Shown: positions 236 to 58,649, counted from the stretch's first letter. The stretch is DNA of 64,000 nucleotides from Candidatus Hecatella orcuttiae (GCA_002011035.2 MTLY02000002.1:96001-160000), one strand, 5' to 3'. Notes: generated by a model not told the origin, from the sequence alone. Program-made: numbers and translations.

Positions 236-2149
236 ACGATTAAAAATAGACATCTTATTTATTTAATGGCTATCACCATAACCATCCTAGCCTTCGGTTC
301 CATCGCAGGAGCATTGACGATCCAAGCAAACATACAGGCTTCCCAAGAAACATACGCCGCAGAGATCCCAAGCTACGTCGGTCCAGAGACATGTAAAATA
401 TGCCACCCCGCTCAGTATGAAGAATGGAAAGACACAGGCCATGCTAACATGATACTCACCGCACAGCAAGCGCAGGAGGAAGGTTTCCCCCTGCCCGAGG
501 GTATATCTTGGGATGATGTGGCGTACACCTTAGGAGGCATTTGGAAGATACGCTACATAAACACAAGCGGTTACTTTATAACTTGGCATTATGAGAATGG
601 AGTCAAAACACCTGGGAAAAACCAATATAATATCGCCACAGGCGAATGGGTCGACTACCACGCTGGCGAAGTTAAAAAGTATACTTGCGGAAACTGTCAC
701 ACTACAGGCTATGATGTAGAGGCCGCGTCCCCAGAGGGTATGCCTGGCATCGTAGGCAACTGGCAGTTCCTCGGCATCACCTGTGAGTCTTGCCATGGGC
801 CTGGAGGAGACCACATCACGGGGCCCACGCAGAACAAAATGGTCATCGATGTGAGTGCGGAGGTCTGCGGGCAGTGCCATGTTAGGGGTAAGGACATCAC
901 TTACCAGCTTGGAGACCCCGAATCCTTCAGCTACACCCACGGTGAAAAGCCTCATAAACATCACCAGCAGTATCATGACTGGATTCAGAGTGAACACAGC
1001 GAATCTTTAGAGCATCTTGTAGCTTTGCCCTACGCACAGGATTACTGTTTGAGCTGTATGAGTGCAGATAAAATCCTGAACACCGATCTCATCACCTTGT
1101 TCAAGGCTCCTGAAGTAACCGTCGAAAATGCCGTGAACCCTGTTACCTGCGTCAACTGCCACAATCCCCACTCTTCCGACCTGAGAATAACGAGGCCTGC
1201 CGTCAAAGGATACCCCGCCGTGGGAGAGGTTGGGTCGACTGCTGATAAATTAACTGTCTGTACGCAGTGCCACACTGGTGGAGCCACGGTGGAGGAGAAG
1301 GATAAGGAGAGATGGCATCATACCACAGGGGAAATATTCACCGCCATAGGTAGCGTACACTATGCTTCCGGTGTTACATGCGTTGACTGCCACATGGCTC
1401 TTGACACCAAGACGGCCATTGCCTATGATCTACGCAACCATACCATGACGGTTCAATCCTATGGGACATACGATTATACATGTGGTCAAGCTATAGGCTG
1501 CCACAAGGAACAAGGCGCAGAATGGGCTGAACAGCGCATATTAGATGCCCAGACTCTGTTCAGCGAATCGCTGGAGAAGGCAGAGGCAGCCATATCTTCA
1601 GCCGAAACTACTATCATCACGGCTAATGAAACCGCAGGAATTGATATGGCCACCCTCAAAGAAGCGGAAGAACTACTGCTGAAAGCTAAAAGTAGGTTTG
1701 CCTACGCAGAGGCAGATGGCAGTGAAGGTTTCCATAACCCAACCTACACCCAGATGCTTTTGGCAGCAGCTCTGGACTATGCTGCCAAGGCTGAATTGAC
1801 CGCGTCTAAAGCTATAGCCGACGCCACCATCGCCACTTTGGCTCCTGCAGAGCAAGTTGAAACCTTGCGGGCTGAGGTTTCCCGCTTGCAAGACGAAATC
1901 TCCGACCTCCAAAAACAGAACAATGCCTTAAAGAGCCAAAATGAAGACCTCCGAAAGTTAAACAGCGACCTTGAGAATCAAGTCAGCAGTTTGCAGGCGC
2001 AGGTTAGCAGTCTTCAAGACCGTGTGGCCGAGTTAGAAGCAGCGGCCCCGCCGAGGGTAGGAATGCTTTACGTTTACCTCGCCATAGGCGTAGTGGTCGG
2101 TATTATCATAGGAGCCGCCGTGATCTTCGCTGTGAAGAGGGGCAAGTAG
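236..2149 (+). CDS. Secreted, C-terminally anchored multiheme cytochrome c (c552/NrfA-like C-terminal helices)
   Basis: 7 CxxCH plus CLSCM and CGQAIGCH; ADGSxGFHNP motif; coiled coil, TM helix and KRGK end. ORF track starts at ATG 266, but the signal-peptide n-region (IKNRH) lies upstream in frame from ACG 236. Confidence 0.85.
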   Translation, partial: TIKNRHLIYLMAITITILAFGSIAGALTIQANIQASQETYAAEIPSYVGPETCKICHPAQYEEWKDTGHANMILTAQQAQEEGFPLPEGISWDDVAYTLGGIWKIRYINTSGYFITWHYENGVKTPGKNQYNIATGEWVDYHAGEVKKYTCGNCHTTGYDVEAASPEGMPGIVGNWQFLGITCESCHGPGGDHITGPTQNKMVIDVSAEVCGQCHVRGKDITYQLGDPESFSYTHGEKPHKHHQQYHDWIQSEHSESLEHLVALPYAQDYCLSCMSADKILNTDLITLFKAPEVTVENAVNPVTCVNCHNPHSSDLRITRPAVKGYPAVGEVGSTADKLTVCTQCHTGGATVEEKDKERWHHTTGEIFTAIGSVHYASGVTCVDCHMALDTKTAIAYDLRNHTMTVQSYGTYDYTCGQAIGCHKEQGAEWAEQRILDAQTLFSESLEKAEAAISSAETTIITANETAGIDMATLKEAEELLLKAKSRFAYAEADGSEGFHNPTYTQMLLAAALDYAAKAELTASKAIADATIATLAPAEQVETLRAEVSRLQDEISDLQKQNNALKSQNEDLRKLNSDLENQVSSLQAQVSSLQDRVAELEAAAPPRVGMLYVYLAIGVVVGIIIGAAVIFAVKRGK

Positions 2150-2218
2150 AAGCGCCCCCCGTCCACATTTTTTGGGATCGGGATTCGTTTAGAAGTGTTT
2201 GCCATAAGGGAGGATGGT

Positions 2219-3544
2219 GTGAGCGGCTTGAGAATCTTTAACTTGAGGGCCACTTACAAGAAGGTTTCCATCCCTCTGCTGGAGAAGCTAACTTTCAAGA
2301 GCCCCCCGAAGGCTTTGAGGAGTTTACAGAATGCGGAAAACATCAGGGAATGCCTAATTCTGCAGACATGTAACAGGGTAGAAATCTTCGCAGTAACCTT
2401 AACCCAGGAAGACGAAGAGAGAGTGGCAGAGTGGTGGAGGAAAGAAACAGGTTTCAACTCAGAGAAATTTTACAGCCTTATCGAAGTGTCCCGTGACGTG
2501 GAAGCTGTGGGCCACCTTTTCCGGCTGGCTTCAGGCCTTGAGTCCATGGTAGTCGGGGAAGCTCAGATCCTCGGCCAGATCAGGAAGGCTTTCGAAGAGG
2601 CTAAAGCCTGCGGCACGGTAGGCCCTCTGCTCGAGAAAGTTTTCACCAAGGCGATCAAGACGGGGGGTCGAGTTCGCCTTGAAACAGACATCGGCAAGGG
2701 CGCTGCATCGGTGGGTTCGGTGGCCGTAGACTTGGCTGAGGAGGTCCTCGGTGGGCTGGAAGGGAGGAGAATCCTCATCCTAGGAGCTGGGGAAACCGGC
2801 ACATTGGTGGGGAAAGCTCTTGCAGCCAGACGGCAGGCCGCGGTCTTCGTGGCCAATCGCACATATCCCAGAGCCCTTAGGCTGGCTCGGATGCTGGGCG
2901 GCCGAGCTGTGTCCTTCAGTCAGCTGGGGAAATTTCTGGCTGAAGCCGACGTGGTGGTGGTCGCCACCTCAGCGCCCCACCCAGTGTTGAAGTTGAGCGA
3001 GGTGGGGAAGGCTTTGGAGGAAAGGGGAGGAAAGCCCATGCTCATCATTGACCTTTCCCAGCCTAGGAACGTGGACGCCGAGGTAGCCCGCCTTAGGGGG
3101 GTTCAACTCCACAACATCGACGACCTCCAAAAGCTGAGCCAGCTAAACCTTAAAATGCGCGCCGCAGAGGTGGAAAAGGTTGAAAAAATCGTGGAAAAAG
3201 AAGTAGGGCGGCTGGAGTTGATGTTGAAGAGGGAAACCGCGGAACCTGTTATCTCAGCCATGCTGCAGAGGGCCGAGAAGATCAGGAGGAAAGAAGTGGA
3301 GAGATTTCTCAGCATGCTGGGCCGGGTGGATGGAACTTTGCGGAAACTCATCGAAGATATGTCCTATGAACTCGTCGAAAGAATCTTCCACCATCCAATC
3401 CAAAACCTGAGAAAAGCCGCGGAAAAGGATCAAACCTCCCTAGTTCTGGCAGCCAGAAAGCTGTTTAACATCGAAGCTGAAAGGGAGCCCCAAGATTTTC
3501 CTGAGAGCTTGCAATATGGAATACCCATGAAAGAGGCATGCTAA
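2219..3544 (+). CDS. hemA: Glutamyl-tRNA reductase
   Basis: TCNRVE catalytic motif, GLESMVVGEAQILGQ, GAGETG, DLSQPRNVD; GTG 2219 is the likely start. Confidence 0.95.
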   Translation: MSGLRIFNLRATYKKVSIPLLEKLTFKSPPKALRSLQNAENIRECLILQTCNRVEIFAVTLTQEDEERVAEWWRKETGFNSEKFYSLIEVSRDVEAVGHLFRLASGLESMVVGEAQILGQIRKAFEEAKACGTVGPLLEKVFTKAIKTGGRVRLETDIGKGAASVGSVAVDLAEEVLGGLEGRRILILGAGETGTLVGKALAARRQAAVFVANRTYPRALRLARMLGGRAVSFSQLGKFLAEADVVVVATSAPHPVLKLSEVGKALEERGGKPMLIIDLSQPRNVDAEVARLRGVQLHNIDDLQKLSQLNLKMRAAEVEKVEKIVEKEVGRLELMLKRETAEPVISAMLQRAEKIRRKEVERFLSMLGRVDGTLRKLIEDMSYELVERIFHHPIQNLRKAAEKDQTSLVLAARKLFNIEAEREPQDFPESLQYGIPMKEAC

Positions 3545-3870
3545 TCAGTATTCTGACAGCCTTCGCTTCCGAAAGGCCTGACCTTTTCCCTTAACTTGCT
3601 TAGTCACCGCTAATAGGAGCAATAGCTGCCAAAGCGTGAGCTCTCGGATAGGGGTGTTCCCCCTCCCTCACATTGGTTACTCTCGTCTCTTCCAAGGCTT
3701 GGCGTCGCCATTGAGCCTTAGCAATCTTCATCGATGCCTTTCGAAGCTGTTGTAATATTATTCTGCTTCCCTGCTTGTTGTGGCATATTTTTCTACCGCT
3801 TCCTAAGAGAGGCTAACGTCTACAAGGGTTCAAATTGGAGGCTACAGTAAATTATTACCACTGACTACGG

Positions 3871-3974
3871 TGGCGGGCCCGGGGGGATTTGAACCCCCGA
3901 CCTCCGGCTCCGCAGGCCGGCGCCCTAGTCCTGATTTTCCGGGATGACGATGAGTCCCTCTAGACGACGGGCCC
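3871..3974 (-). tRNA. tRNA-Arg(GCG) with a 25-nt non-canonical intron at 15/16 (3935..3959)
   Basis: GGGCCCG acceptor stem, CCGGC-CTGCGGA-GCCGG anticodon arm, TTCAAAT T-loop, encoded CCA; removing 25 nt restores the D-loop AGTCAGGACTA. Confidence 0.9.
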
Positions 3975-4096
3975 TTCTTCAGCGGTGTTAGGGTTCCCGG
4001 AGGTCACCGTCAATATTATATCTGTCTCCAATTATACGGTTTACGGTTTCGACTGCTTCCCCTTCGCAGTCTTAGATCGGATGGCGGGGATTAAGT

Positions 4097-5743
4097 TTGG
4101 CGGGAAAAATAGGGCGGCTGGAAGGCCATTGGATTGACCGGGTGGTCAGGGAACTGGAGCTCAGAGGAGATGAGCAGCTGGTCTTCAGCACCGCCAAGAC
4201 CCCCAGCGGGCCTATCCACGTCGGTGTAGGTCGGGAGCTGGTGTACTGCAGCGCCTTCGAGACCCTGCTGAGGGAGAGAGGCTTCCCCACCGCCTTCTAC
4301 TTTTTCGTCGACGACTTTGACTCCCTGAAAACCTTCCCCCCGGCTACGCCTAAGGACTTCGCATCACGCAGGGAGTACCTTGGAAGACCCATGTGGGCGG
4401 TGCCCTGCCCCTACGGGCACTGCGAAAGCTGGGGGCGCCATTACGCTCAGGAGCTCATCGAAACCTTCCCAACTTTCGGCTTCCACCCCCAGATCGTCTG
4501 GTCCCACCGTCTTTACCAGACCCCGGAGATGAAAAACCTCATCCGCAAGGCCTTAGAAAAGGTGGGCGAGTTAAAGGCCATCCTCCGCCGGGTGGTTACA
4601 CCCACGCTTCAGGGAGAGAAGCTTGAGGCCTTCCAAAAAGAGCTGGAAGACTGGTATCCCTGCTTGGTGGTCTGCGAAGCCTGCGGCCGCCTCATGACCA
4701 CGAAGGTTCAAGCCTACGACTCCCAAGGTGACCTTCTGACCTACAGCTGCAAGGCCTGCGGCCGGAGGGGGCAGGTAAAGATAGCGGACCACCCGGTTAA
4801 ACTCCGGTGGAGGATCGACTGGCCTGCCAAGTGGGCCTTGTTCAAGGTAAGCTGCGAACCAGCCGGCAAAGACCACTGCGTGAAGGGCGGAGCCTACGAC
4901 ACGGGGGAGCATATCGTCAGCCGGGTCTTCGGTTGGAAGCCGCCTTACCGCATTCCCTACGAGTGGATACTTTTGGGGGCGAAGGCCATGAAAACCCACA
5001 AGGGGATTTCCTTCACCTTCGCAGAATGGTCGGCTTCCGCCCCCCCGGAAGTCTACCGCTTCATGGTCCTCAGAGAAGAACCCCGCAAGCACATCAACTT
5101 CTCCCCCGAGCGGCTCCCCCAGCTCATCGACGAATTTGAAAGAGCTGAAAAAATCTACTTCAACCTAGAAAAGGCCTCAACCCCGGAGGAGGAAGCCGCT
5201 GTCCGGAGGGTTTACCCCCTCAGCCTGCCTGAGGGGCCCCCCGCCTCTCCTCCCCTCAGACTTCCTTTCAGGTTCGCCATAGTCCTATGCCAGCTGACGC
5301 CCCTCCTAGGGGAGGAGGGGGTGAAATCCAAGGTTCGAGAAGTCTTAGAGAAACTGGGGGGAGGAAAAAAAGTGGGAGAGGAGGTGATTTCCTCAGCCCA
5401 AGACAGGCTGAAGAAGGCGCAATACTGGGTCGTCCACTACGCTGGGGAAGACCTCCGATTCAACATAGCCGAAACCCTCCCCGCGCAGGTTCGAGAAATG
5501 TTAGACAGCCGACAAAGGGAAGGACTGAAGAGGCTGGCTGAAATGCTGGAGGAAAAAGACTGGGATGAGGCGGAACTTCAATACCAAGTCTTCGAGCTGG
5601 GGAAAAGCTTGGGGATAGGCCCTAAGATCTTTGAAGCGGTTTATCTGGTTTTCTTGGGGAAAAAATTCGGCCCTAGGCTGGCTCCTTTTCTCCTATCCTT
5701 AGATAAGGAGTTCGCCGTCAAAAGGTTGAGGGAGACCTCCTAG
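4097..5743 (+). CDS. lysS: Class I lysyl-tRNA synthetase
   Basis: TPSGPIHVG, KLRWRIDWPAKW, EPAGKDH, GPRLAPF motifs; two CxxC pairs. Confidence 0.95.
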   Translation: MAGKIGRLEGHWIDRVVRELELRGDEQLVFSTAKTPSGPIHVGVGRELVYCSAFETLLRERGFPTAFYFFVDDFDSLKTFPPATPKDFASRREYLGRPMWAVPCPYGHCESWGRHYAQELIETFPTFGFHPQIVWSHRLYQTPEMKNLIRKALEKVGELKAILRRVVTPTLQGEKLEAFQKELEDWYPCLVVCEACGRLMTTKVQAYDSQGDLLTYSCKACGRRGQVKIADHPVKLRWRIDWPAKWALFKVSCEPAGKDHCVKGGAYDTGEHIVSRVFGWKPPYRIPYEWILLGAKAMKTHKGISFTFAEWSASAPPEVYRFMVLREEPRKHINFSPERLPQLIDEFERAEKIYFNLEKASTPEEEAAVRRVYPLSLPEGPPASPPLRLPFRFAIVLCQLTPLLGEEGVKSKVREVLEKLGGGKKVGEEVISSAQDRLKKAQYWVVHYAGEDLRFNIAETLPAQVREMLDSRQREGLKRLAEMLEEKDWDEAELQYQVFELGKSLGIGPKIFEAVYLVFLGKKFGPRLAPFLLSLDKEFAVKRLRETS

Positions 5744-5779
5744 AAGCTGGAAGCTGCTGTGAAAAGCCGAAAACGATGT

Positions 5780-6652: not shown

Positions 6653-6739
6653 CTCAGCCAAAGCCCGGTGTTTCTTAAAAAGACGGGGTTTAGAATCCCT
6701 CATTATATATGTTCAAAAAGCCTTAAAACACTATCGTTT

Positions 6740-8853: not shown

Positions 8854-10068
8854 CTAACCGGAGGTGTAGCTTTCGGCAATTTCGTAGAAGGCATCCTTAA
8901 CCTTTTTGAGCTGATCCCAGCTTAGGCTGTAGGTTGAGAGCTTGATGTGCTTGCTCATACCTCTGTGGATGCCTGTGATCCCCCTCCTGTTCAGCTCCTC
9001 CGCCAAGAAGAAACCTTTCCTCTTATGACGTTTGGATATCTCCCAGAAAACAGGGGTTTCAAAATGCATCAGATGATGTCGGTGAGGCCTATCCCCAATG
9101 AGCATGACGTCATCTAGTTTCTCCATTTCCCCGATAAACCAGCGGACTTTTTCCAGCTCTTCATTCCAATTTCTAACTCGCTCCACTACGTAGGGAAATG
9201 AAAGCATGGCGGAAACTAGGGGCACAGCGCCTACGCTACACCCGAAAAGGCTGGGAATCTTCTTCCCAAAAGCCCGGCCGCTCCAGTGGGTCACCATAGT
9301 GGAGCTTTCAAACGTTCGTTTAGCCCATTCAAAGTTGGTGACTAGAAAACCCAGAGGGCCTAGGGAGGCCATGGATTTGTGGGCTGAAACCGTCAGGAAG
9401 TCGGCTTTCATCTCCTTCATGTTCACCGGCATGACCCCGGCTGTGTACGCGGCGTTGACCATGTAGGGGATGTCATATTCCCTTGCAATCTCCCCCACCT
9501 CCTTCACAGGATTCAGGTTACCGTAGTAGGGGTCCGCATGGGTGACCACTATCAACGCGGGAAGCTTCCCCTTCTCCTTTTTAACCCGCTCTATTCTCTC
9601 AGCGAAATTTTTCGCCTCCACCCTGTACTCAGGATAGCCTCTGTGAACTGCCTCTTCCAATTCGAAGCCCGCCATCTCAGCGGCTATGACGGTTGTGTAG
9701 TGGCAGAGGGGATCGGTGACGATGACTTTGGCATATTCCCTCGACCCGTTTTCCGCTACATAGTCAGCCAAGGTTTTCATGACGGCGAATTGGGCTCCCC
9801 GGCAGCCGAAGGTATGCTCAGCCACGTCTCCCCCGAAGAACTCCGCCACATCGGCTTGGAAGTCTTTAACGGGAGGCTTGCCTATGAGGCTGGATCTCCC
9901 GTCTAGACAGTCAAAGCAGATGGCGTAGCCGGCTTTAGTCCAGCCTTCTTCCAGAAGCCTCTTCTGAACTTCTTGAGGGAGAATGCCCCCGGTCATGATG
10001 GGGTGGATGATAAGATATCCTTTGTGGGAGTTGCTGAGACGCCTATACCTTTGAAGATCTACCGTCGT
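8854..10068 (-). CDS. pscS: O-phosphoseryl-tRNA:Cys-tRNA synthase (SepCysS)
   Basis: PI-x-x-GGIL, CFDC, PLP-site SAHKS, FGCS, HKRKGFFLAEEL; conserved N-terminus extends upstream of ATG 9996 to ACG 10068. Confidence 0.9.
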   Translation of the reverse strand, partial: TTVDLQRYRRLSNSHKGYLIIHPIMTGGILPQEVQKRLLEEGWTKAGYAICFDCLDGRSSLIGKPPVKDFQADVAEFFGGDVAEHTFGCRGAQFAVMKTLADYVAENGSREYAKVIVTDPLCHYTTVIAAEMAGFELEEAVHRGYPEYRVEAKNFAERIERVKKEKGKLPALIVVTHADPYYGNLNPVKEVGEIAREYDIPYMVNAAYTAGVMPVNMKEMKADFLTVSAHKSMASLGPLGFLVTNFEWAKRTFESSTMVTHWSGRAFGKKIPSLFGCSVGAVPLVSAMLSFPYVVERVRNWNEELEKVRWFIGEMEKLDDVMLIGDRPHRHHLMHFETPVFWEISKRHKRKGFFLAEELNRRGITGIHRGMSKHIKLSTYSLSWDQLKKVKDAFYEIAESYTSG

Positions 10069-10071
10069 CCC

Positions 10072-11094
10072 TTATCCCTCATGTCCTATTTTCTGCAGGT
10101 GCCGCCTAACGTCACCTACGATCGACTTGAGAAGTCTCTCCAGGTTCTCCCCAGAGTAAAGGTCCACTCCCAGTTCATCTTCGCTGGCTGTGAGAATGAA
10201 GTCTATCCAAGGACCTCGTTGAACCACTTCATACGGTCTGATGGTTTCGGAAAGCCTTTCCACCGCTTCTTTAGCCTTTTCCTCCGAAGCCATTTTCAGG
10301 GGGATGCGAATGGTAAGCAGTTTAAATCTGCCCCTCAAATCCTTGTTGAGGTAGACCCTGACGTTGGTGCCATCGAATTTTCCAAGAAAATAATCGGTTC
10401 CCTTGGACAGGCCGATTTTTTCAAGTTCTTGAACGAGGTCCTTGGGTAGGTCGCTGGCCCGGCATCCGCAGAGGGGGCCTCCGCTTTTCATAACCTCCGA
10501 TATGGCTTCAGCTGCCTGCACATATACTTCAGGAGGAGCTCCGAAGATGACTTCGTCCTCTCGAAAATCAGCCAGTAGCCGGGCTCCTTTGCAGAGGAAA
10601 GACACATTGGGCTTACGGTCCAAGTAAGGTTTGGCAGTGAAATCGCTGCAAGCCTTCTCCCCTTTAAAGTCCGCGGCTAGGCTTTCGACCCCCGCACCTT
10701 TCAGGATACTGGTTAGCTCCATCATTTGTCTCGGAGTCAAAATCGCATGGACGACGTCGGGCTCTTCCTCCATCCGGCTGAGGGGAGCAACCTGTATGCC
10801 TTTCGTGTCCGCTGGCTTAACCCTAGGCTCAACCCCGGATAGCTTCGGCTCCCTGAAACCTAGGACGAAATGGGCTGTGGAGCAGGCTTCGTCGTCTTTC
10901 CCGTAAAGAAAAACCCTGTTTTCCATGGAAGCCAAGCGGAGCGTCTTACAGTACTCCATGGGTCTCTCAGGTTTGAGAGCCTCAGTTCCATGAGCGTCTT
11001 CCTTGAGAAGTTTCACTCCGACGAGGGAGTATTTTAAGCCGAGATAGCTTCTTATCGTTTCATCGATTTCCTTCCAGTTTCTTGGTTTCACCAT
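10072..11094 (-). CDS. DUF169-like Cys-containing protein with C-terminal extension (LCGC)
   Basis: VGVKL, YC, AC..AHFVLGF, PDVV...TPRQMM, ACSD, SFLCKGAR, EVIFG patterns. Confidence 0.75.
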   Translation of the reverse strand: MVKPRNWKEIDETIRSYLGLKYSLVGVKLLKEDAHGTEALKPERPMEYCKTLRLASMENRVFLYGKDDEACSTAHFVLGFREPKLSGVEPRVKPADTKGIQVAPLSRMEEEPDVVHAILTPRQMMELTSILKGAGVESLAADFKGEKACSDFTAKPYLDRKPNVSFLCKGARLLADFREDEVIFGAPPEVYVQAAEAISEVMKSGGPLCGCRASDLPKDLVQELEKIGLSKGTDYFLGKFDGTNVRVYLNKDLRGRFKLLTIRIPLKMASEEKAKEAVERLSETIRPYEVVQRGPWIDFILTASEDELGVDLYSGENLERLLKSIVGDVRRHLQKIGHEG

Positions 11095-17129: not shown

Positions 17130-18536
17130 ATGAAACCTCATTCAAACGCGGACAGCTTGAAAAAACCGCGGCTGGTGGTGGCGGGGGCTCAGAGCAGCTC
17201 AGGGAAGACCACAGTTACCTTAGGCCTCGCGGGGCTTCTCATGAAAAGAGGCTACCTAGTTCAGACCTTCAAAGTAGGCCCTGACTACATCGACCCCAGC
17301 TATCACACTGGCATCACCCGGAGGCCGTGCCGAAACCTCGATTCATGGATGGTTCCTCTGCCCCATCTGCTGGAGATATTCGCTCACGGCATGGAAGAAG
17401 CTGACATAGCCTTGGTGGAGGGTGTCATGGGCCTTTACGACGGTATCCACGGCGCAGGGGAGGCTGGAAGCACAGCGCAGGTAGCTAAAAGATTGAAGGC
17501 GCCTGTGATCCTTGTAGTTGACGCTCACAGCATGGCGAGGTCCGCTGGAGCTTTAGTTTTAGGCTACAAAAGCTTCGACCCCCAGCTCAGCCTCAGGGGG
17601 GTGATTCTGAACAGGGTCTCTTCCCTCTCCCACGCTCAATGGTGCAAGGAGGCGATCGAGAAAGCAGCTAAGATCCCCGTCGTAGGCGCTATACCCAAGA
17701 GCGGGGAAATAGAAATGCCTGAACGCCATTTGGGGTTGATCCCTGTAAAGGAAAAAGAAAGCCTAGGAGGTTATTTTTCAAAGATAATCTCCCACATGGA
17801 GTCCCACGTGGACTTGGCCATGATCTTGGACGTCGCTGCTTCAGCCCCAAAATTGCCTGAAGTGAAGAAGGTGCTTTTTCCGTCTACTTCTCTTCCTAAA
17901 AAAGTGAGGGTAGGCGTCGCCTTAGATGAAGCCTTCAATTTCTACTACCAAGAAAATTTGGACTTGTTGAGTCTCCACGGCGCTGAGCTTGTGCCCTTCA
18001 GCCCCATCCACCACCGGAAGCTTCCCGAGGTAGACGGCCTATACTTGGGAGGAGGATTCCCGGAAGTGCTTCCCAGAGAACTGGAAGCTAACAAGACCGT
18101 GAGAAACGAGATAAGGAAGGCGGCAGAGGACTCCATGCCTGTCTACGCGGAGTGCGGAGGCTTGATGTATCTCACGAGATCCATCACCGATTTCAACGGC
18201 CGCACGTATAGGATGGTGGGTATTTTCGACGGCAGGACCCTTATGACCAAGAAGCTCTGCCTAAACTACACTTTAGCCAAAGTGGTGAAAGGCCACCTGC
18301 TGGCTGGTCCGGGAGCGAAACTGAAGGGCCATGAGTTTCACTATTCAAAGATCGTGGAAATCCCCCGGGACGCCGTCTTCGCCTACAGCATGGAGAAAGG
18401 CTACGGCATCGACGGGAAACATGACGCTTGGAACCTGTATAATACCTACGCCTCCTACATGCATGTCCACTTCGCCCACAGCCTGAAATTGGTCAGAAAT
18501 TTTATTGCACACTGCCAGAAATACAGCAAACACTGA
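17130..18536 (+). CDS. cbiA: Cobyrinate a,c-diamide synthase (CbiA/CobB family; CfbB not excluded)
   Basis: SSSGKTT, KVGPDYIDP, EGVMGLYDG, ERHLGL, AECGGLMYL, GHEFHYS. Confidence 0.92.
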   Translation: MKPHSNADSLKKPRLVVAGAQSSSGKTTVTLGLAGLLMKRGYLVQTFKVGPDYIDPSYHTGITRRPCRNLDSWMVPLPHLLEIFAHGMEEADIALVEGVMGLYDGIHGAGEAGSTAQVAKRLKAPVILVVDAHSMARSAGALVLGYKSFDPQLSLRGVILNRVSSLSHAQWCKEAIEKAAKIPVVGAIPKSGEIEMPERHLGLIPVKEKESLGGYFSKIISHMESHVDLAMILDVAASAPKLPEVKKVLFPSTSLPKKVRVGVALDEAFNFYYQENLDLLSLHGAELVPFSPIHHRKLPEVDGLYLGGGFPEVLPRELEANKTVRNEIRKAAEDSMPVYAECGGLMYLTRSITDFNGRTYRMVGIFDGRTLMTKKLCLNYTLAKVVKGHLLAGPGAKLKGHEFHYSKIVEIPRDAVFAYSMEKGYGIDGKHDAWNLYNTYASYMHVHFAHSLKLVRNFIAHCQKYSKH

Positions 18537-18544
18537 AGGGAGGA

Positions 18545-19984
18545 CTGAAGGCTTCGGGGTTAAAAATATATAACACGCTGACAGGCCGGGAGGAGGAGTT
18601 TAAACCCATAGAAAGCGGAAAGGTGAAAATCTACACCTGCGGCCCCACCGTGTACGACTACGCCCATATCGGGAACTTCAGAACCTTTGTGCTTCAAGAC
18701 GTTCTAAGGAGGTGGCTGAAATACAAAGGCTACGAGGTCTACCAAGTCATGAACCTAACCGACGTTGACGACAAGACCATCAGAGGCGCCAGAGAAACCG
18801 GTCTCTCCTTGAAGGAGTATACCGCCAAGTATACGGAGGCGTTTTTCGAGGACGCGGATAAACTTGGCATTGAAAGAGTTGAAGTCTACCCCAAAGCCAC
18901 CGAGCACATCCAGGAAATGGTAGAACTGGTCAAGAAGCTCATGGACAAAGGATTCGCCTACCGAGGGGAGGACGGTTCGGTGTATTTTGACATCTCAAAA
19001 TTTCGGGAATACGGCCAGCTGTCCAAGGTCAAGCTACGCCTTTTGAAGGCGAAAGGCCGAATCAAAGCTGACCAGTACTCTAAGGAGGAGGCAGAAGACT
19101 TCGCCCTCTGGAAGGCGTGGGACGAGGAAGATGGGGATGTTTTTTGGGAAACAGAGCTGGGGAAAGGTAGACCTGGATGGCATACCGAATGCGCAGCCTT
19201 GTCCATCAAATATCTGGGGGAAACCTTCGACATCCACGCCGGCGGAGTCGACCTCATGTTTCCTCACCACGAAAACGAGATAGCTCAGGCAGAAGCGGCG
19301 ACTGGTAGAAAATTCGTCAACTACTGGCTTCACTTCAACCACCTGATGGTGGAAGGGAGAAAAATGTCCAAGTCTCTGGGAAACTTCTACACCCTGCGGG
19401 ACTTACTTCAGAGAGGCTACCACCCTAAGGCCATAAGATACGTTCTGCTTTCAACCCATTACCGTAAGATATTAGACTTCTCCTTGAAGAATCTGGAGAA
19501 GGCATCTGATGTCGTCGGAAAACTAGAGGACTTTCTCCATCGACTAAAGGAAGCCAAGGGAAGGAAGGAAGAGGGAGAGAGAGAAGAAGCTGAAAAGCTG
19601 ATTTCTCAATGCAAAGAAAGCTTTGAAGCAGCCATGGACGACGACTTGAATGTAAGCATTGCTTTAGCCTCGGTGTTCAGACTTGTGAGAGAGGCCAACA
19701 GGCTTATCGACGAAAACAAGCTTGGAGAGAAGGAGGCGGAAGACATGGAAGGCTTCTTAAAAAACGTGAACAGAGTCCTCAACCTCGTCGAAGAAAAACC
19801 CAGACCGGAAAAGCTTCCCGAAGAACTGGAGAAACTTCTCATCAAAAGGGAAGAAGCCCGGAAGAATAGAGATTGGAAAACCGCCGACGCCCTTAGGGAA
19901 GAGCTGGAGAAGAAGGGGTTAAAAATAGAGGACACACCGAAAGGGGTGCGGTGGAAGTGGAAAATCAGTTCTCCAAGGAGTTAA
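18545..19984 (+). CDS. cysS: Cysteinyl-tRNA synthetase (class I)
   Basis: CGPTVYDYAHIGN, GRPGWHTEC, FPHHENE, KMSKS; conserved LKIYNTLT...EEFKP lies upstream of the first canonical start (GTG 18623), so the true start is uncertain. Confidence 0.93.
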   Translation: MKASGLKIYNTLTGREEEFKPIESGKVKIYTCGPTVYDYAHIGNFRTFVLQDVLRRWLKYKGYEVYQVMNLTDVDDKTIRGARETGLSLKEYTAKYTEAFFEDADKLGIERVEVYPKATEHIQEMVELVKKLMDKGFAYRGEDGSVYFDISKFREYGQLSKVKLRLLKAKGRIKADQYSKEEAEDFALWKAWDEEDGDVFWETELGKGRPGWHTECAALSIKYLGETFDIHAGGVDLMFPHHENEIAQAEAATGRKFVNYWLHFNHLMVEGRKMSKSLGNFYTLRDLLQRGYHPKAIRYVLLSTHYRKILDFSLKNLEKASDVVGKLEDFLHRLKEAKGRKEEGEREEAEKLISQCKESFEAAMDDDLNVSIALASVFRLVREANRLIDENKLGEKEAEDMEGFLKNVNRVLNLVEEKPRPEKLPEELEKLLIKREEARKNRDWKTADALREELEKKGLKIEDTPKGVRWKWKISSPRS

Positions 19985-34418: not shown

Positions 34419-34501
34419 GTTTCACACCAATCGCGGATGCTAAAGTAAAAGCTACAGTCTTAAAGAGACAAAGCCCATTTTAAGCATAGCGGGGATCGGC
34501 C

Positions 34502-34936
34502 ACGTCAAAGGACGAAGTAAAAGCTCTTCAGACCCTCTGCGAAGAACTCAAAGCGCAAGGAGGCCTTACCAAGAGGCAGAAACAGCTGCTGGTGAGAACC
34601 TTCGGCAAGCGGGGTGAAAACGCCTTGAAAGCCTTAGAGGATGGGGCGGTTAAAAAATACATCTTCGAGCCCAGCGGACGCGTGGTCTGGGTGGTGGTGG
34701 GAAAGGAAAGAGACTACCAAGTTCTGCCCTCCGTTAACTATTGCAGCTGTGACGATTTCTATTTCAGGGTTCTAGACGGTGAGACATCTCTGTGCTATCA
34801 CGTCATCGCCCAGAAGATATCGGAACTCTTAGGCAGGTTTGAAGTCATAGTAGATTCCGATGAGATCTATGAGGCTTTAATGGAGGAATGGAGGCAGATA
34901 AAGAAGCATGACTTTCCAAAGGAGGAAAACTCTTAA
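34502..34936 (+). CDS. SWIM zinc-finger protein
   Basis: YCSCDDF..CYH; helical N-terminus lies upstream of GTG 34592, proposed start ACG 34502. Confidence 0.8.
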   Translation, partial: TSKDEVKALQTLCEELKAQGGLTKRQKQLLVRTFGKRGENALKALEDGAVKKYIFEPSGRVVWVVVGKERDYQVLPSVNYCSCDDFYFRVLDGETSLCYHVIAQKISELLGRFEVIVDSDEIYEALMEEWRQIKKHDFPKEENS

Positions 34937-35004
34937 AGATTTAAAAGAAGATAAAACAAAAACGAGTAGCTGCCTCTAGGCGTGGAGAAGGGCGGTGGTG
35001 TTCC

Positions 35005-35682
35005 CTGTCAACAGAAATCATCCCGGGAGTTCATGCCACAAGGTTTGAGCTACTTTTGCTCAGGAGAAGAGTTAAGCTAGCCCGGCGGGGCCATGACCTT
35101 CTCGTCGAAAAGAGGGACGCGCTGCTTCTCCACTTCTTTGACGCCCTGAGGGATATAGCCCCCCTGCGAGGGAAAATGGTGAAACGGCTGGAGGAAGCCT
35201 TCAAAAGCTTCCTAAGCGCCCAGCTGGCCTTAGGCTCAGGTAGGCTGCACGGTCTGTCCTACGGTGTTCCAGACCGCTTCGACGTGGTAGAGAGAAGCCG
35301 AAACATCATAGGAGTCACGCTTCCCTTCTTTGAGCTGAAAGTCAAGGAAAGGCCTCAGGAACGTTGGTGGTATGATATCCCCGAAACCTCCGCCTCCTTG
35401 GATGACGCCCTGAAAGCCATGGAGGAAGCCTTAGGGCTTATGGTCCAGCTGGCTGAAATTGAAACAGCCGTTAAAAGACTGGCGGAAGTCATAACCATGA
35501 CCAAACGGAGAGTCAACGCCCTGGAGAACATCATCATTCCAAAATTTGAAAACACCATCCGATTCATCCAAATGCACCTAGAAGAACGGGCTAGAGAAGA
35601 TTTTTTCAGGCTGAAACGCATTAAAAGAATTCATGCTGCTGAAGAAGCTGAGCGTGCAGCCGCCGCCCCTACTGCTTTCTAG
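35005..35682 (+). CDS. atpD: A/V-type ATP synthase subunit D
   Basis: TRFELL..RRRVKLARRGHDLL, KRRVNALE, ERAREDFFRLK; start is probably CTG 35005. Confidence 0.93.
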   Translation: MSTEIIPGVHATRFELLLLRRRVKLARRGHDLLVEKRDALLLHFFDALRDIAPLRGKMVKRLEEAFKSFLSAQLALGSGRLHGLSYGVPDRFDVVERSRNIIGVTLPFFELKVKERPQERWWYDIPETSASLDDALKAMEEALGLMVQLAEIETAVKRLAEVITMTKRRVNALENIIIPKFENTIRFIQMHLEERAREDFFRLKRIKRIHAAEEAERAAAAPTAF

Positions 35683-50020: not shown

Positions 50021-50109
50021 TAGATGAAGAGGCTTAAACTTCTAAAATTACGAATATTTCATTTAAAGGAATAACCATGAAAATTAAACCTATTCAGCAT
50101 TAGCACGGT

Positions 50110-51197: not shown

Positions 51198-51211
51198 ATT
51201 TACACCCGCAC

Positions 51212-52147: not shown

Positions 52148-52221
52148 GTGAGTCCACCTATCCTATTACAAGTTCGGTGAGAACCTATGTTTCTTCAGAG
52201 CAAAAGAAGAGAAAACCGGTA

Positions 52222-53009: not shown

Positions 53010-53330
53010 TTACCATCTTAATCTACGAAGTCTTCTCACATCAAGGGTATCATAATGCCTATGTACGTTGATGATCAGGAGTAAAGCTATAGTTGCCACT
53101 GCAGCCCCTATAACAATCGATACAATGACTACACTCTGGGCTAAGGCATCGACTGATGCGGATAGAGAAATACTCTGCCCCAAAGCTATGAAGTTTAGAT
53201 TGACGGCTGACGTGATTATCTCTATTCCTATAACTATTACTATCATGTTCCTTTTTACGGCAATAGTGTAAACGCCTATAATAAAAAGAACAGCTGCTGC
53301 GGCAATATACCAAGTTGGATTTACTACCAT
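53010..53330 (-). CDS. nuoK: NuoK-like membrane subunit (orphan)
   Basis: LFIIGVY..KRN..GIEI..AVNLNF..LRRLRW. Confidence 0.82.
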   Translation of the reverse strand: MVVNPTWYIAAAAVLFIIGVYTIAVKRNMIVIVIGIEIITSAVNLNFIALGQSISLSASVDALAQSVVIVSIVIGAAVATIALLLIINVHRHYDTLDVRRLRRLRW

Positions 53331-53378
53331 GAGTCAACCTTCTTCGATAACTCACAATAATAAAGTTCCCATCTGCCC

Positions 53379-53633
53379 TTACCATTTCTTTACAGTGTGC
53401 AAAGTTACAAGAAATAAGACAACAACAGCGCCAGCATTGATCAGGATCTGAAGACCGGCGACCAAAGGAGCGCCCAAAATGAAAAACATCACACCAACGA
53501 GAATGTTCATGAAAAAGAAGGCGGCGACATTCTTCGGAAGCCTAGATTCGCAACACAATAGAGCCGCTATGATAGTTAAGCCGATTATCATGAGTTGGAG
53601 GATCTCATAAAGAGATATTTCCATTCTTTCCAT
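53379..53633 (-). CDS. NuoJ N-terminal-half-like membrane subunit (orphan)
   Basis: FFILGAPLVAGLQILINAGAVVVLFL. Confidence 0.75.
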   Translation of the reverse strand: MERMEISLYEILQLMIIGLTIIAALLCCESRLPKNVAAFFFMNILVGVMFFILGAPLVAGLQILINAGAVVVLFLVTLHTVKKW

Positions 53634-53737
53634 CTACCGCAAAGACAGACGCAGATACACTTCGTTCTATTTTCACCCTTATAACACCATAAATAAAGAA
53701 AACTTTACCCATAGCATTGGGCAGTTCTGTTCGAGGT

Positions 53738-53890
53738 TTAATGATGCATGCCTACGTACTTCGCCGGGTCCTCGTCGAACTTAGCTTTACAGCCGGCAGC
53801 ACAGAAGTAGTAGGTTTTACCCATATGCTCCGACTTATATTGTGCTGTTTTCTCATCGACCTCCATCCCGCAAATAGGATCTTTCGCCAA
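53738..53890 (-). CDS. 50-aa YHS/TRASH metallochaperone (not in the ORF track)
   Basis: MAKDPICGMEVD..GKTYYFCAAGCKAKFDEDPAKY; GAGGTGAT 5 nt before TTG. Confidence 0.9.
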   Translation of the reverse strand: MAKDPICGMEVDEKTAQYKSEHMGKTYYFCAAGCKAKFDEDPAKYVGMHH

Positions 53891-54252
53891 GACATATCAC
53901 CTCTTCCAACTTGTTCATTTTCGGGAAGATATGATGGAATATCATTTAAAATGATTGTTATTTCTATTCGAATAAAATGAAAGAAACCGTGATGGTATTC
54001 TCAATAAACATCGTTCCCGTTTTTTTATGTAAAAAGAAAAATAGACAGTAAATAGTTTAGTGATTCAGGAAAGATATGGTATAAGAGGCGATATATCTCC
54101 ATTTCCAAAAAATGTCAAGAATATTCTGCTGATATCTCTTGAAAACTTTACTGAATATTTATTTGTTAAAGTGCAATTAAGCTGATGTAATTTTGATGAG
54201 AGAAAAAGAATTATTAGTCTATAAGTCGAATAATAGAAAATAGGGAGATAAT

Positions 54253-54858
54253 ATGTCTTCCATAGTAATCGACAAAGTTGATACAGGTATAATTCAGGCA
54301 CTTCAGAAAGACAGCAGAACATCATTGAAAGAGATCTCAAGATTAGTGGGCATCAGTGTACCTACCGCGCGCGCAAGAATTCAGCGACTCGAAGATCTCG
54401 GAGTCATAAAAAGATTCACAGTAGCTATAGACCCACAGAAACTGGTAGGAGGTATAACCGTCTTGCTCCATTTAGATGTAAAACTTCCAAACATCAAGGC
54501 TGTCGGAGAAAGGCTTTCACAAATGGAGGAAGTTACAGAAACCTACTTAACCACTGGAGAATACGATGTCGTTGCTAAGATCTGTGTACCGGACATGCGT
54601 TCTCTCGAAGAGTTCATCGCCCACAAGTTAAGCGAAGTTCCTGGTATAGAACACGCCCACAGTAGCATAATTGTGGAGACTTTAAAAGAGTTATACGGAC
54701 CGGTTCTACGTCCAGGATTCGGCATCAGGCTTTCCTGTTACTATTGTAAGCGAGAGATAGCTAAAGACCCGGTAAGAAAGACTATAAATGAAAGGGAGTA
54801 TTATTTCTGCTGCGATACCTGCGCTTCTACCTACCAGCAAAGGTTCATAAAAAGCTGA
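54253..54858 (+). CDS. CopR-like regulator (Lrp HTH + AsnC + TRASH)
   Basis: Lrp HTH, TTGEYD, CYYC..YYFCCDTC. Confidence 0.88.
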   Translation: MSSIVIDKVDTGIIQALQKDSRTSLKEISRLVGISVPTARARIQRLEDLGVIKRFTVAIDPQKLVGGITVLLHLDVKLPNIKAVGERLSQMEEVTETYLTTGEYDVVAKICVPDMRSLEEFIAHKLSEVPGIEHAHSSIIVETLKELYGPVLRPGFGIRLSCYYCKREIAKDPVRKTINEREYYFCCDTCASTYQQRFIKS

Positions 54859-55253
54859 ACCTCTGGTTTCTGTTCTTGATCAGTCTGTATGCCCTGATAA
54901 CTCCTACCGGGTCTTTCCACAGATAGGCAGAACACCTGCAATATTAGAGAACTTTTCGGCTATCCCGTAATCTGCGATGACCCTTTTGCACGACTCCAAG
55001 GTTATGGAAATGGAGGAAACCCTTTTTTAGAGTCAGGTGGTAATCGACTCTCCGGTAGCATATTGTGAAAGCTTTTGGCCATCCAGCATGTTTCCATTGC
55101 TTTTTCACTAAAACAACCTTCAAGATATAAGTACTCTAGGTTAAGAAATCAGCTCTAAATTTAGTGAAAAGTAAAACGCTTCTCTCTTCATATTTTGGAA
55201 AGAGGAAAAGAAAGGGATATAGAAGGTTGCCAACAGATAACAAGTGGAGGATA

Positions 55254-55841
55254 ATGATGCTTCTAGAGCTTGACAACATTGATATAAACATCCTTAAAAT
55301 ACTTCAGAAAAACAGTAGAATATCTTTGAAAGCTATCTCCAAACTAGTAAAGACCAGTGTACCCACAGTCCGTACAAGAATAGAAAAAATGTTCGAACTA
55401 GGAATCATAAAACGATTCACAATAGCCATCGACAGTCAAAAGCTCCCAAGAGGTACTGAAGCGTTCATTAGCCTTCAAGTTAAGTTGCCAGAAGTTAAGG
55501 AAGTGGTTGAGGTTCTCTCAAAAATGGATGAAGTTACCGCGATTTACCACACCAGCGGAGAATATAACCTCATAATAAGGGTATGGTTGCAGGATATACG
55601 TTCACTTCCAGACTTCATTATCTGCAAGTTAAGCACTATAGAAACTATAAGGAGTTTCCAATGTAGCATACTCGTCGAAAGCTTCAAGGAACATTATGGG
55701 CCCGTGCTAAAGCATGAGTTAGGGTTAAAGCTATTATGCTTCTATTGCAGAAAAGATATCACAGATGATCTCGTTACGAAGACCATAAACGGCGCTGAGC
55801 AATATTTTTGTTGCGAGACGTGCGCCTCGGCTATACGCTAA
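55254..55841 (+). CDS. Second CopR-like regulator (Lrp HTH + AsnC + TRASH)
   Basis: Paralog of 54253; CFYC..YFCCETC. Confidence 0.85.
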   Translation: MMLLELDNIDINILKILQKNSRISLKAISKLVKTSVPTVRTRIEKMFELGIIKRFTIAIDSQKLPRGTEAFISLQVKLPEVKEVVEVLSKMDEVTAIYHTSGEYNLIIRVWLQDIRSLPDFIICKLSTIETIRSFQCSILVESFKEHYGPVLKHELGLKLLCFYCRKDITDDLVTKTINGAEQYFCCETCASAIR

Positions 55842-56054
55842 GAATGGAGTTATCCTCTGGATCTCTTTTCCCATCGTGGTACTATTATTGCCATCAAAAT
55901 TTACCTATCCGCCAAAAATTTCTGATAAAATTCGATAAAGAAATAATTCAGCTCCATGTTGTTAGATAAACAATAAAGGACAACCAAATTATACCGACGG
56001 TATCCATTTAACTATACACATTAGTGGGAGTGAGTGAAAGAGGGCTGATTAGAT

Positions 56055-58649
56055 ACGGAAAAAATTGAACGTAAGAAAACTGTGTTAAAGATAGGTGGAA
56101 TGACTTGTGCCTCCTGCGCTCAAACCATAGAGAAAGAACTGTCTAAACTTGAGGGTGTAACAGAGGTTGCAGTCAATTTTGCAGCTGAAAAGGCGACAGT
56201 CGAGTACGATCCAGAAAAGATAGATCGGACAAGATTGGAGAAAGCTGTTTCCGATGTAGGATACAGGGTAATCAAAGATGAGATTACGCTGAATATTCAC
56301 GGTATGACTTGCGCTTCCTGCGCCCAAAACATCGAAAAGGCACTGAGCAAAGTTGAGGGGGTATCCAATGCAAGCGTAAACTTTGCGATGGGGAGGGCTG
56401 TAGTCCAGTATGACTCGTCTCAGGTAAGTGTAGCTGAACTTAAGAAGGTTGTAAAAGACTTAGGTTATGAAGCGGTGGAGAGAGTTGAGGAGACTGCGGA
56501 AGATAGGGAAAGAGCAGCGAGAGAGAAGGAGATAAGAACTCAAAAGCACAACCTTATGATCGCTGTAGCCCTAACTGTTCCCCTTGTGTTATTCAGTTTT
56601 CGCGACACCTTCGCTGGCTTCTATGAAAGTATCGGATTGGGTTTTCTTCCCATGTATACTCTACCGGAGAACAAGTACCTCCTTTATCTCATGTTTATTC
56701 TGACCACCATCATAATGGCTGGGCCTGGAAGACAGTTCTTCACCGGAACTTACAAGGGATTAAGGCACGGCACCACGGATATGAACTTGCTCATAGCCAC
56801 AGGAACAGGTGCCGCTTACGTGGTAAGTGTCGTAGCAACTTTCTTTGCGTTAGGCCCGGGGTATAGAGAGGTCTATTACGATACTGCCGGGCTGCTTGTA
56901 TCGTTCATAGTTCTTGGGAGATACTTGGAGGCAAATGCGAAAGGCAGAACCTCTGAGTCTATCCGAAAACTGATGGGTTTGCGGGCTAAGATAGCGAGAG
57001 TGATTAGGGCTGGTGTGGAAAAGGAAATCCCTGCCGAGGATGTGTTGGTTGGAGACCTTGTCATCGTTAGACCGGGTGAAAAAATACCAGTTGATGGAAT
57101 AGTGAGGGAAGGCCATTCGGCTGTAGATGAGTCCATGATAACTGGTGAAAGCCTCCCCGTTGATAAGAAAGTAGGCGACGAAATTATTGGCGCAACAATC
57201 AACAAAACAGGAGTGTTAAAAGTTGAAGCTACAAAAGTAGGAAAGGACACAGCACTATCGCAGATTATCAAATTAGTGGAGGACGCTCAGACCTCAAAGG
57301 CTCCAATTCAGAGGATCGCCGACTACGTGGCAGGGCACTTCATAGTCGCCGTGCACGTACTGGCTTTGGCAGCCTTCTTCTTCTGGTTCTTCGTAGGATA
57401 TCCAACATTCACACCTGGAACTATATTCGAAACAGCGAGTCCTTTCCTCTTCGCGCTCCTCATAGCCATTACAACCCTCGTAATAGCATGTCCATGCGCT
57501 GTCGGGTTGGCCACACCCACCGCTATCATGGTGGGAACAGGGAAAGGCGCCGAAAACGGTATCCTCATCAAAGGGGGAGAGGCATTAGAGAATGCTCATA
57601 AACTAGACACCATCGTATTCGATAAGACAGGCACTCTGACAAAAGGCGAACCGTCCCTAACAGACATAATCGTTGCCAGGGGATTACTGGCGAATCCGGG
57701 TCCGAGTATAAGTCAAATCCCACCGGAAGAAATAGTTGTTCTGGAAAAGTGGAGTGAAGAGAGTGTGTTAAAGTATGCTGCGGTAGCCGAGAAAATGTCT
57801 GAACACCCTTTAGGAAAGGCGATCGTGGAGGGCGCGAAGGAAAAAGGAATAGAGGTAGACGACCCTGAGGCCTTCAACGCTATTCCCGGCCACGGTGTGG
57901 AAGCGAAATACAATGGCAAACTAATTCTTCTCGGAACACGCAAATTGATGAAAGACAATGGCATAGACATTGAGCACTTGGAGGAAGAAATGAAAACATT
58001 GGAAAACGATGGGAAAACAGCGATGATTCTTGCGGTTGATAAAAGACCTGTTGGCCTAGTCGCTGTTGCAGACACCCTCACAGAGTACGCTAAGGAGGCT
58101 GTGGATGAACTTCACAAGATGGGCTTAGAGGTGTTGATGATTACAGGAGATAATGAGCGAACAGCAAAAGCAATCGCTAGGCAAGTGGGCATAAACAGAG
58201 TTCTCGCAGAAGTGCTTCCTAAAGACAAGGCTAACGAGATTAAAAAGCTTCAAAGCGAGGGCAGGAGAGTCGCCATGGTCGGGGATGGAATCAACGATGC
58301 ACCCGCTTTGACCCAATCTGACATCGGCATTGCCATAGGAAGTGGAACTGATGTTGCCATGGAGTCCGGCAAGATCGTGCTAATCAAAAACGATGTTAGA
58401 GACGTTGTCTCCGCAATCAAACTCAGCAGACAAACTATGAAGAAAATTAAACAGAACCTATTCTGGGCTTTTGTCTACAACGGCACGGGACTACCTGTAG
58501 GAGCGGGGGTTCTGTTTCCCTCACTAGGCTTTTTAGTCAGCCCTGCGTTGGCCGCTGCCTTCATGGCTATGAGTTCCGTATCGGTCACTGCAAACTCATT
58601 GTTATTCAAAAGATACAAGCTTAAGAAGGTGCATCATCCGGCTGCTTAA
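56055..58649 (+). CDS. copA: Cu(I)-exporting P1B-1 ATPase
   Basis: Two GMTCASC HMA domains, TGES, CPC, DKTGT, SEHP, GDGIND, YN, MAMSS; first canonical start is GTG 56082, proposed start ACG 56055. Confidence 0.95.

Follow-up and report, generated by a model that had tools for sequence, protein, structure and literature searches.

Probable direct initiation at ACG and CTG codons behind Shine-Dalgarno sequences in Candidatus Hecatella orcuttiae, with similar starts in other Bathyarchaeia

Several conserved genes in a stretch of 64,000 nucleotides from the archaeon Candidatus Hecatella orcuttiae (C2:96001-160000 of a 1.75 Mb genome in three contigs, here C1 to C3; the whole stretch is referred to as the window) carry ACG or CTG where a start codon would be expected. 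These codons, and rarely ATT or ATC, are probably real starts in 2–4% of the genes of this genome, at which translation would be initiated directly by the ordinary initiator Met-tRNA on a codon placed by the Shine-Dalgarno (SD) sequence. A preliminary description of the window had listed six such genes and had proposed that the lineage either initiates routinely at ACG and CUG or edits C to U. Five of the six cases hold and the sixth, copA, is unconvincing. Routine initiation is supported by alignments of orthologues, by a codon enrichment with an internal control, by a test based on Pfam domains, and by DNA assemblies in which the C is retained.

The 3' end of the 16S rRNA of this genome is ...GGATCACCTCCT, from which the SD consensus is GGAGGTGAT(C), the same as that assumed in the preliminary description. 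Each of the eight strings quoted there occurs once, on the strand and at the place given. The three genes with canonical starts that serve as comparators all run SD, 4-5 nt, start codon: lysS (4083-4099, + strand, SD GGCGGGGAT-taagt-TTG 4097), mtrH (15623-15635, + strand, SD GGTGAT-atgc-ATG 15633), and a YHS-domain gene (53903-53888, - strand, SD GAGGTGAT-atgtc-TTG, located as a string only). Among 174 unambiguous canonical starts in the genome (77 ATG, 63 TTG, and 34 GTG) the spacer from GGTGAT to the start has its mode at 4-5 nt, and likewise for the ACG and CTG starts. TTG is an unusually frequent start codon in this genome, being used in 63 of these 174 genes and in ~33% of genes in the start model described below.

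The gene for subunit D of an A/V-type ATP synthase (AtpD; 34991..35682, + strand) has the SD GGCGGTGGT at 34991-34999, a 5-nt spacer, and CTG at 35005-35007, the quoted string being 34991-35007. The first canonical codon in this frame is TTG 35056, and the Pfam domain ATP-synt_D has already begun at 35047. Orthologues were sought in up to 30 relatives, all of them of other genera, the nearest sharing 63-79% protein identity. The N-terminus of AtpD is LSTEIIPGVHATR, with MSTEIIAGVHATR in an orthologue, and among the 13 closest orthologues 11 have ATG, TTG, or GTG exactly at the codon aligned to the CTG, while the other two have it at a distance of one codon. The proposed start at CTG 35005 is therefore backed both by the 11 exact orthologues and by the domain boundary. 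A gene for a SWIM-type zinc-finger protein (34489..34936, + strand) has the SD GCGGGGAT at 34489-34496, again a 5-nt spacer, and ACG at 34502-34504 (quoted string 34489-34504), with its first canonical codon at GTG 34592. Of 26 assessable orthologues, 23 have a canonical start no more than two codons from where ACG 34502 aligns, in agreement with a start there, and this ACG has a posterior of 0.59 in the start model.

The gene for SepCysS (O-phosphoseryl-tRNA:Cys-tRNA synthase-like; 8854..10080, - strand), called pscS in the preliminary description, has the SD GAGGGAT at 10080-10074 and starts at ACG 10068-10066 or at the next ACG (quoted string 10080-10066, - strand). The reading frame opens just one codon ahead of ACG 10068. 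The SD overlaps the TAA of the upstream gene, the ACG is 3 nt past this TAA, and the first canonical codon, ATG 9996, is 24 codons past the ACG. In the 20 orthologues viewed, ATG, TTG, or GTG is found a few codons ahead of a conserved xRY...NPIQRGG segment, and this segment lies upstream of ATG 9996 in the present genome, which favours the ACG.

In cysS, encoding cysteinyl-tRNA synthetase (CysRS; 18533..19984, + strand), the first ATG, GTG, or TTG is GTG 18623, within the catalytic domain; the Pfam domain tRNA-synt_1e begins at 18599, 8 codons ahead of it. In 13 of 13 orthologues an ATG, TTG, or GTG is found 1-7 codons ahead of an L[KR][IVF][YF][ND]T motif, which begins at 18560 here. The absence of a canonical start ahead of the catalytic domain, as first described, is thus confirmed by the sequence, by Pfam, and by the orthologues. 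The gene probably starts at CTG 18545-18547, with CTG 18533 as an alternative. CTG 18545 is 8 nt past the TGA of the upstream gene, and the SD GAAGGGAGGA abuts it, which is an atypical spacing; it is the least certain among the CTG cases.

The multihaem cytochrome gene (221..2149, + strand) has the SD GGAAGGGGGT at 221-230, a 5-nt spacer, and ACG at 236-238, the quoted string from SD to ACG being 223-238, and the region upstream is AT-rich and promoter-like. The public call of this protein is 627 aa, from ATG 266, and has no charged n-region. Translated from ACG 236 it begins (M)IKNRHLIYLMAITITILAFG, with a charged n-region and a hydrophobic core, and this matches the closest database homologue, P0003, which begins MKKNRKIQLLLFSLIILLG and so bears out the ACG. 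No homologue was found among the 30 relatives searched and database homologues were used instead, one of which is labelled Candidatus Bathyarchaeia.

Four public DNA runs (from four studies, with depths of about 310, 60-100, 13, and 30, two of which may be the source sample) gave assembled contigs that were compared with nucleotides 1-20000 of the window. Site 236 is spanned by contigs of runs X1 and X3, and sites 10068 and 18545 are each spanned by contigs of X1, X3, and X5, with 0 differing letters; the sole differences listed in this part of the window are at 2821-2902. The C is therefore retained at all three sites compared, and the check for T/C errors that had been suggested, made here with contigs, rejects assembly error at 236, 10068, and 18545.

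Genome-wide, 1,630 genes were called crudely by codon usage, and the codons in frame that follow the upstream stop and precede the first ATG, GTG, or TTG (pre-start codons) were tabulated, a good SD being defined as a score of at least 14 at a spacer of 3-7. There are 18,160 pre-start codons, of which 797 (4.4%) have a good SD. The two codons that rank first and second of 58 by this measure are ACG (17/185) and CTG (31/343), combined 48/528, with an odds ratio of 2.25 (Fisher p=1.5e-6), so that the enrichment at SD distance expected by the preliminary description is present. They keep these ranks when a distance of at least 3 or at least 6 codons from the canonical start is demanded. Within gene interiors (148,553 codons, 6.3% with a good SD overall) neither is enriched, ACG ranking 34 (76/1249) and CTG 22 (254/3887).

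The Pfam test drew on the 155 genes that have 10 or more pre-start codons with a positive coding score over them, and 150 of these were scanned. There were matches in 106 of these, and in 24 the domain begins 3 or more residues ahead of every canonical codon. Five of the 24 are internal fragments, two of them the pieces of MttB and MtmB that follow an in-frame TAG, leaving 19. When the best-placed SD was chosen by a fixed rule, it pointed to ACG or CTG in 9 of the 19 (binomial P=1e-9 against a background of 2.9% per pick), to ATT in one, and to ATC in one; ATT is at the start position of the AA-kinase gene. By eye, ACG or CTG is present just ahead of the domain in 12 of the 19, with ACG in Rrp4, fibrillarin, HisF, an ABC-2 permease, and TopoVI-B, and CTG in TrmI, an Endo_dU protein, an ArsR regulator, AcnX, an RNA-binding protein, TFB, and CofC. 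As to the fragments, this genome has a pyrrolysine system, with a tRNA-Pyl(CUA) gene at C1:349861-349931 beside MttB- and MtmB-type methyltransferase genes (C1:347851 and C1:354861, - strand) whose Pfam matches run on across the in-frame TAG; the open reading frame fragments begin at profile positions 341 and 197.

In the case of HisF, the ACG (C1:271769, - strand) directly follows a TAG stop, and the frame therefore cannot start upstream. All 22 of 22 relatives have ATG, GTG, or TTG at the codon aligned to this ACG or one before it, several of them with the same AAGGGGGT SD and the same stop-start arrangement. No canonical codon is reached until 34 codons in, past the conserved IIPCLDV strand. 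For the ACG of fibrillarin (C2:2174), 23 of 28 orthologues have a canonical codon within one codon. There is no canonical start between the upstream stop and the conserved N-terminus in HisF, fibrillarin, AtpD, SepCysS, SWIM, and CysRS, which is not the case for copA, and the codon used is one mismatch from AUG, at a normal spacer behind an SD that fits the genome's own 16S. An expectation-maximisation model of starts gives expected counts of 669 for ATG, 430 for TTG, 205 for GTG, 40 for CTG, and 32 for ACG, and serves as a rough estimate only. Taken together, ACG or CTG would be the true start of roughly 2–4% of protein genes, about 30-70 genes.

Similar starts are found in the relatives. In 167 loci (546 kb, 504 genes) from 30 relatives, pooled after being fetched for other purposes, a good SD precedes 8/81 ACG, 8/92 CTG, and 10/120 ATT pre-start codons vs 290/7322 overall, with an odds ratio of 2.6 for ACG and CTG combined (p=0.0013). 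There is an ACG start in HisA of relative G015 (TIVIPAIDLMDGK), a CTG start in a ThiI-like gene of G001, a CTG at the aligned start of fibrillarin in G019, and an ATT start in HisH of both G002 and G007, two species of one genus (IKVLILDYKMGN). In a 400 kb sample of G022, with 30.6% GC, ACG and CTG are scarce (8 and 19 pre-start codons), and the clear cases are ATT (a HAD phosphatase, IKALALDIDGT) and ATC. The preliminary description had confined the trait to its own lineage and to ACG and CTG; it extends to other Bathyarchaeia families and includes ATT. From these sequences near-cognate starts look to be class-wide in the Bathyarchaeia, with the choice of codon tracking base composition, ACG and CTG being used at 52% GC overall in Candidatus H. 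orcuttiae and ATT and ATC at 31% GC in G022. That the choice follows GC would suggest mutational drift of start codons under low stringency, with compensation by a strong ribosome-binding site. The HisH ATT persists in both species of its genus, and orthologues of the genes of Candidatus H. orcuttiae in other genera use canonical codons.

A number of observations weigh against near-cognate starts, or against their extent. For copA (P-type copper ATPase; 56042..58649, + strand), ACG 56055-56057 is a candidate start after the weak SD GGGCTGAT (quoted string 56042-56057). Position 1 of the Pfam HMA profile aligns exactly with GTG 56082, and a conserved segment upstream of the GTG is therefore not demonstrated; this GTG has no SD, and the two codons appear equally possible as the start. 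The claim that in each case an expected N-terminal segment lies upstream of the first canonical codon is consequently true of SepCysS, SWIM, AtpD, cysS, and the cytochrome and fails for copA. In five of the 19 Pfam cases no near-cognate behind an SD, ACG and CTG included, is assignable (LysX at C1:274733, an HMGL-like gene at C3:631585, DUF2119 at C3:171829, Ham1 at C2:229446, and a TyrRS/TrpRS-like gene at C2:176586). When at least 10 codons from the canonical start are demanded, CTG is first and ACG is third, behind GTC (9/88), and the top codons in the pooled relatives (CGG, 12/102) and in G022 (AAT, 10/164) are unexplained. The start model also yields AAA 99.6, AAG 48.9, and GAA 44.8, counts that are read as artefacts of A-rich spacers or of second codons near true starts. 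SD strength speaks for the near-cognate starts, 9 of 12 of them having an SD score of at least 14 vs 46 of the 174 unambiguous canonical ones (p=0.001), but this comparison is partly circular because the near-cognate starts were picked partly by their SD. The genes were called and the SDs scored by home-made procedures. The control for the enrichment is the gene interiors of the same genome, and the genomes compared are Bathyarchaeia of other genera. The public sequencing runs with this DNA come to nine rows, all DNA, with no RNA run listed. As to the surroundings of copA, nucleotides 48000-60000 of the window, which contain this gene and the YHS-domain gene, are low in GC (39-46% vs ~51% elsewhere) and are possibly an acquired metal-resistance island.

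The mechanism that would account for these starts is a simple one. The SD of the mRNA would pair with the 3' end of the 16S and set the codon 4-5 nt past GGTGAT in the P site, where the ordinary initiator Met-tRNA (anticodon CAU) would tolerate one mismatch; if it accepts the mismatch, proteins would start with Met at the same position as those of the orthologues. SD pairing that is stronger than average would make up for the weak codon. We infer that the ribosome starts directly on the unedited codon, with Met. The only feature common to the sites is an SD at a normal spacer, and the favoured codons are those best tolerated by the homologous machinery of eukaryotes. The initiator tRNA and aIF1, which it had been suggested should be inspected, fit with this: the tRNA has A1:U72, three G-C pairs, and the anticodon CAU, and aIF1 is present. 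For archaea, the available text of PMC6237735 describes a complex placed in advance by the SD, an initiator tRNA that tries out successive triplets, and proofreading by aIF1, which makes complexes on codons other than AUG less stable. An extended SD supports weak AUU and AUA starts in Staphylococcus aureus, as described in the available part of PMC13009471.

The aIF1 of this genome (C1:240601-240909) has GGT-F-KNS where 28 relatives have GGT[A/V/T/S]KN, mostly with Ala and rarely with Val, Thr, or Ser. This segment corresponds roughly to loop 2 of eIF1. The Phe was considered as the cause of the trait, and was dropped, relatives with the usual residue also having ACG, CTG, and ATT starts.

It is unlikely that a special route is needed for these starts, either termination and reinitiation after an abutting gene or a second initiator-type tRNA. 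A stop is directly ahead of HisF (TAG-ACG), and is close to the start in SepCysS (3 nt past TAA) and cysS (8 nt past TGA), as reinitiation would have it, but the starts of the cytochrome, SWIM, and AtpD are not coupled to an upstream stop, there being a ~70-nt intergenic spacer in the SWIM/AtpD region. Two initiator-type tRNA genes are indeed present, at C3:12646-12724 and, with an intron, at C2:476948-477052, but the anticodon is CAU in both, and no CGU or CAG tRNA with initiator features was seen in a tRNA scan that is incomplete owing to introns. ARAGORN with introns gave unreliable calls.

One tRNA-like gene in the window (3871-3974, - strand), found in the intron mode of ARAGORN only and without an Rfam match at the gathering score, has the acceptor GGGCCCG...CGGGCCC-G-CCA, the loop CUGCGGA, which would be Arg-GCG, and an insertion in the D-region; at 3869-3909 the contigs of each of the four runs are interrupted or end loosely. 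The genome has two differing 16S copies, and an initiator-type tRNA-Met gene is located ~12 kb downstream of each. The copy at C2:464353-466521 is full length, with 2,169 nt against a model of 1,478 positions, and probably contains introns, while that at C3:4-640 is partial, at the end of a contig, with 2 differences in the last 45 bases. These could be two rRNA operons or the mark of a chimeric bin, the contamination estimate being 4.25%.

C-to-U editing of the mRNA before translation, from ACG to AUG and from CUG to UUG as in plant organelles, is a still less likely explanation, including the form of it in which the activity that edits the start codons would possibly also repair C33 of two tRNA-Gly genes. 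In its favour, a single C>U change would make a canonical start of either ACG or CTG. C33, which had been described for tRNA-Gly, replaces the near-universal U33 in two tRNA-Gly genes, and a TadA-like and a dCMP-deaminase-like protein are encoded. The ATT and ATC starts (the AA-kinase gene, HisH of G002 and G007, and the HAD and ATC cases of G022) cannot be converted by C>U into AUG, GUG, or UUG, and so make editing unlikely. GCG, which would become GUG, is not enriched (12/217), although the power here is low, with an expected excess of only ~3 matches. There is no common sequence context besides the SD, judged by eye. The restoration of conserved residues inside coding regions by editing is not supported either: across 443 conserved columns in 7 protein families there are 18 deviations in this genome, of which one is C>T-fixable, vs four A>G, two G>A, and one T>C.

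Two proteins of the deaminase fold are present, with CDA-fold matches at C3:714747-715037 and C1:26833-27225, but both are small, generic, below the NCBIfam cut-offs, and without an RNA-binding domain. The THUMP matches (C2:26867, C1:169480, and C3:388731) are at separate loci from these, so that there is no fusion of the CDAT8 type. DYW and PPR domains (PF14432 and PF01535) have no match in this genome, with neither family matching any control genome, so that the sensitivity of this search is unproven. The editing branch of the preliminary description thus gains no support from the ATT and ATC starts, from GCG, from the conserved columns, or from the editing factors. Direct near-cognate initiation across the class, at CUG, ACG, and AUU on SD-led mRNAs, is much likelier than editing. 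The tRNA-Gly genes with C33 are tRNA-Gly(UCC) in the window (47997-48074, + strand) and the near-identical tRNA-Gly(CCC) at C2:56709-56783, with the loops CCUCCAA and CCCCCAA, and tRNA-Gly(GCC) of the same genome has U33.

The true starts might instead be the first downstream ATG, GTG, or TTG, the upstream codons being untranslated remnants of truncated proteins or decaying genes. The public call of the cytochrome uses ATG 266 (627 aa), and the GTG of copA matches the domain boundary. Elsewhere, such starts would cost HisF 34 residues, including IIPCLDV, fibrillarin 42, AtpD 17, and SepCysS 24, and in these four genes the upstream residues remain open and like those of the orthologues. In addition, 19 genes have a Pfam domain that begins ahead of their canonical codon, the SD precedes the ACG or CTG and not the downstream canonical codon, and essential genes are among those affected (TFB, CysRS, Rrp4, and TopoVI-B), all of which makes this explanation very improbable. 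Assembly or sequencing error, with ATG or TTG in the true DNA, has a negligible chance of being correct; a long-contig metagenome assembly could hold consensus errors, but independent contigs of the four runs agree at the three sites compared, with no other letter at depths up to about 310, like starts occur in relatives assembled elsewhere, and random T>C errors in 2–4% of start codons would be an absurd genome-wide error rate, making such error implausible in general.

If direct near-cognate initiation is real, gene finders limited to ATG, GTG, and TTG set the N-terminus wrongly or cut it off in a few percent of the genes of Candidatus H. orcuttiae, and this misannotation probably spans the metagenome genomes of the Bathyarchaeia. 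It would remove signal peptides (the public cytochrome is 10 codons short), the catalytic strand of HisF, and DNA-binding parts, and metabolic and localisation inferences would be skewed for one of the most abundant groups of subsurface archaea. Archaea and eukaryotes share the core of aIF1, aIF1A, aIF2, and initiator tRNA, and a lineage that tolerates CUG and ACG by way of the SD would be a natural experiment on start-codon stringency, with many native mRNAs as test cases. Editing, were it true, would give the Archaea a first system for site-specific editing of mRNA.

Rare AUU, AUA, and CUG starts are well known in bacteria, and NCBI table 11 is not known to list ACG as a start codon. Weak starts behind strong or extended SDs are described in S. 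aureus, in cvfC1 (AUU), ccpN (AUA), and infC (AUA), in the available part of PMC13009471, which also cites AUU starts in infC and pcnB of Escherichia coli. As far as that text goes, these bacterial starts resemble those described here in having a near-cognate at a normal spacer behind an SD stronger than average, in being missed by gene finders, and in that initiation is probably lowered or tuned; they number a handful per genome, are third-position variants, and involve IF3 and fMet-tRNA. In Candidatus H. orcuttiae, by contrast, there are tens of genes, mostly with ACG and CUG, in an archaeon with initiation of the aIF1/aIF2 type. In eukaryotes the near-cognate hierarchy places CUG, GUG, ACG, and UUG above AUU, AUC, and AUA. 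The same near-cognates, first-position variants and ACG, are favoured here, and archaea and eukaryotes have homologous initiator tRNAs and a homologous core of e/aIF1, e/aIF1A, and e/aIF2. The eukaryotic starts rely on scanning and on the Kozak context, and their products are mostly minor isoforms or upstream open reading frames, whereas here the SD places the codon, which appears to be the sole start of housekeeping proteins.

Editing of ACG to AUG is known in plant organelles, as is the editing of C8 to U8 in tRNA by CDAT8 in Methanopyrus kandleri. The plant organelles have in common with the present genome a genomic ACG where AUG is expected; the present genome differs from these systems in having no PPR/DYW or THUMP-deaminase match, in its ATT and ATC starts, and in its scarcity of C>T-fixable deviations. 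In Haloferax volcanii, ribosome profiling placed ~30% of putative alternative initiation sites at near-cognates, and these were set aside by the authors as possible false positives (PMC7261190, in the text available). As presented in that text those sites are alternative ones, whereas the codons described here appear to be the sole starts of conserved genes. No report of ACG or CUG starts in archaeal genomes was found in a search of the literature, in which a match for start codons in Bathyarchaeota proved to deal with cloning only. The starts described here differ from the known bacterial cases in the number of genes, in the prominence of ACG, and in their occurrence in an archaeal class with initiation factors of the eukaryote type.

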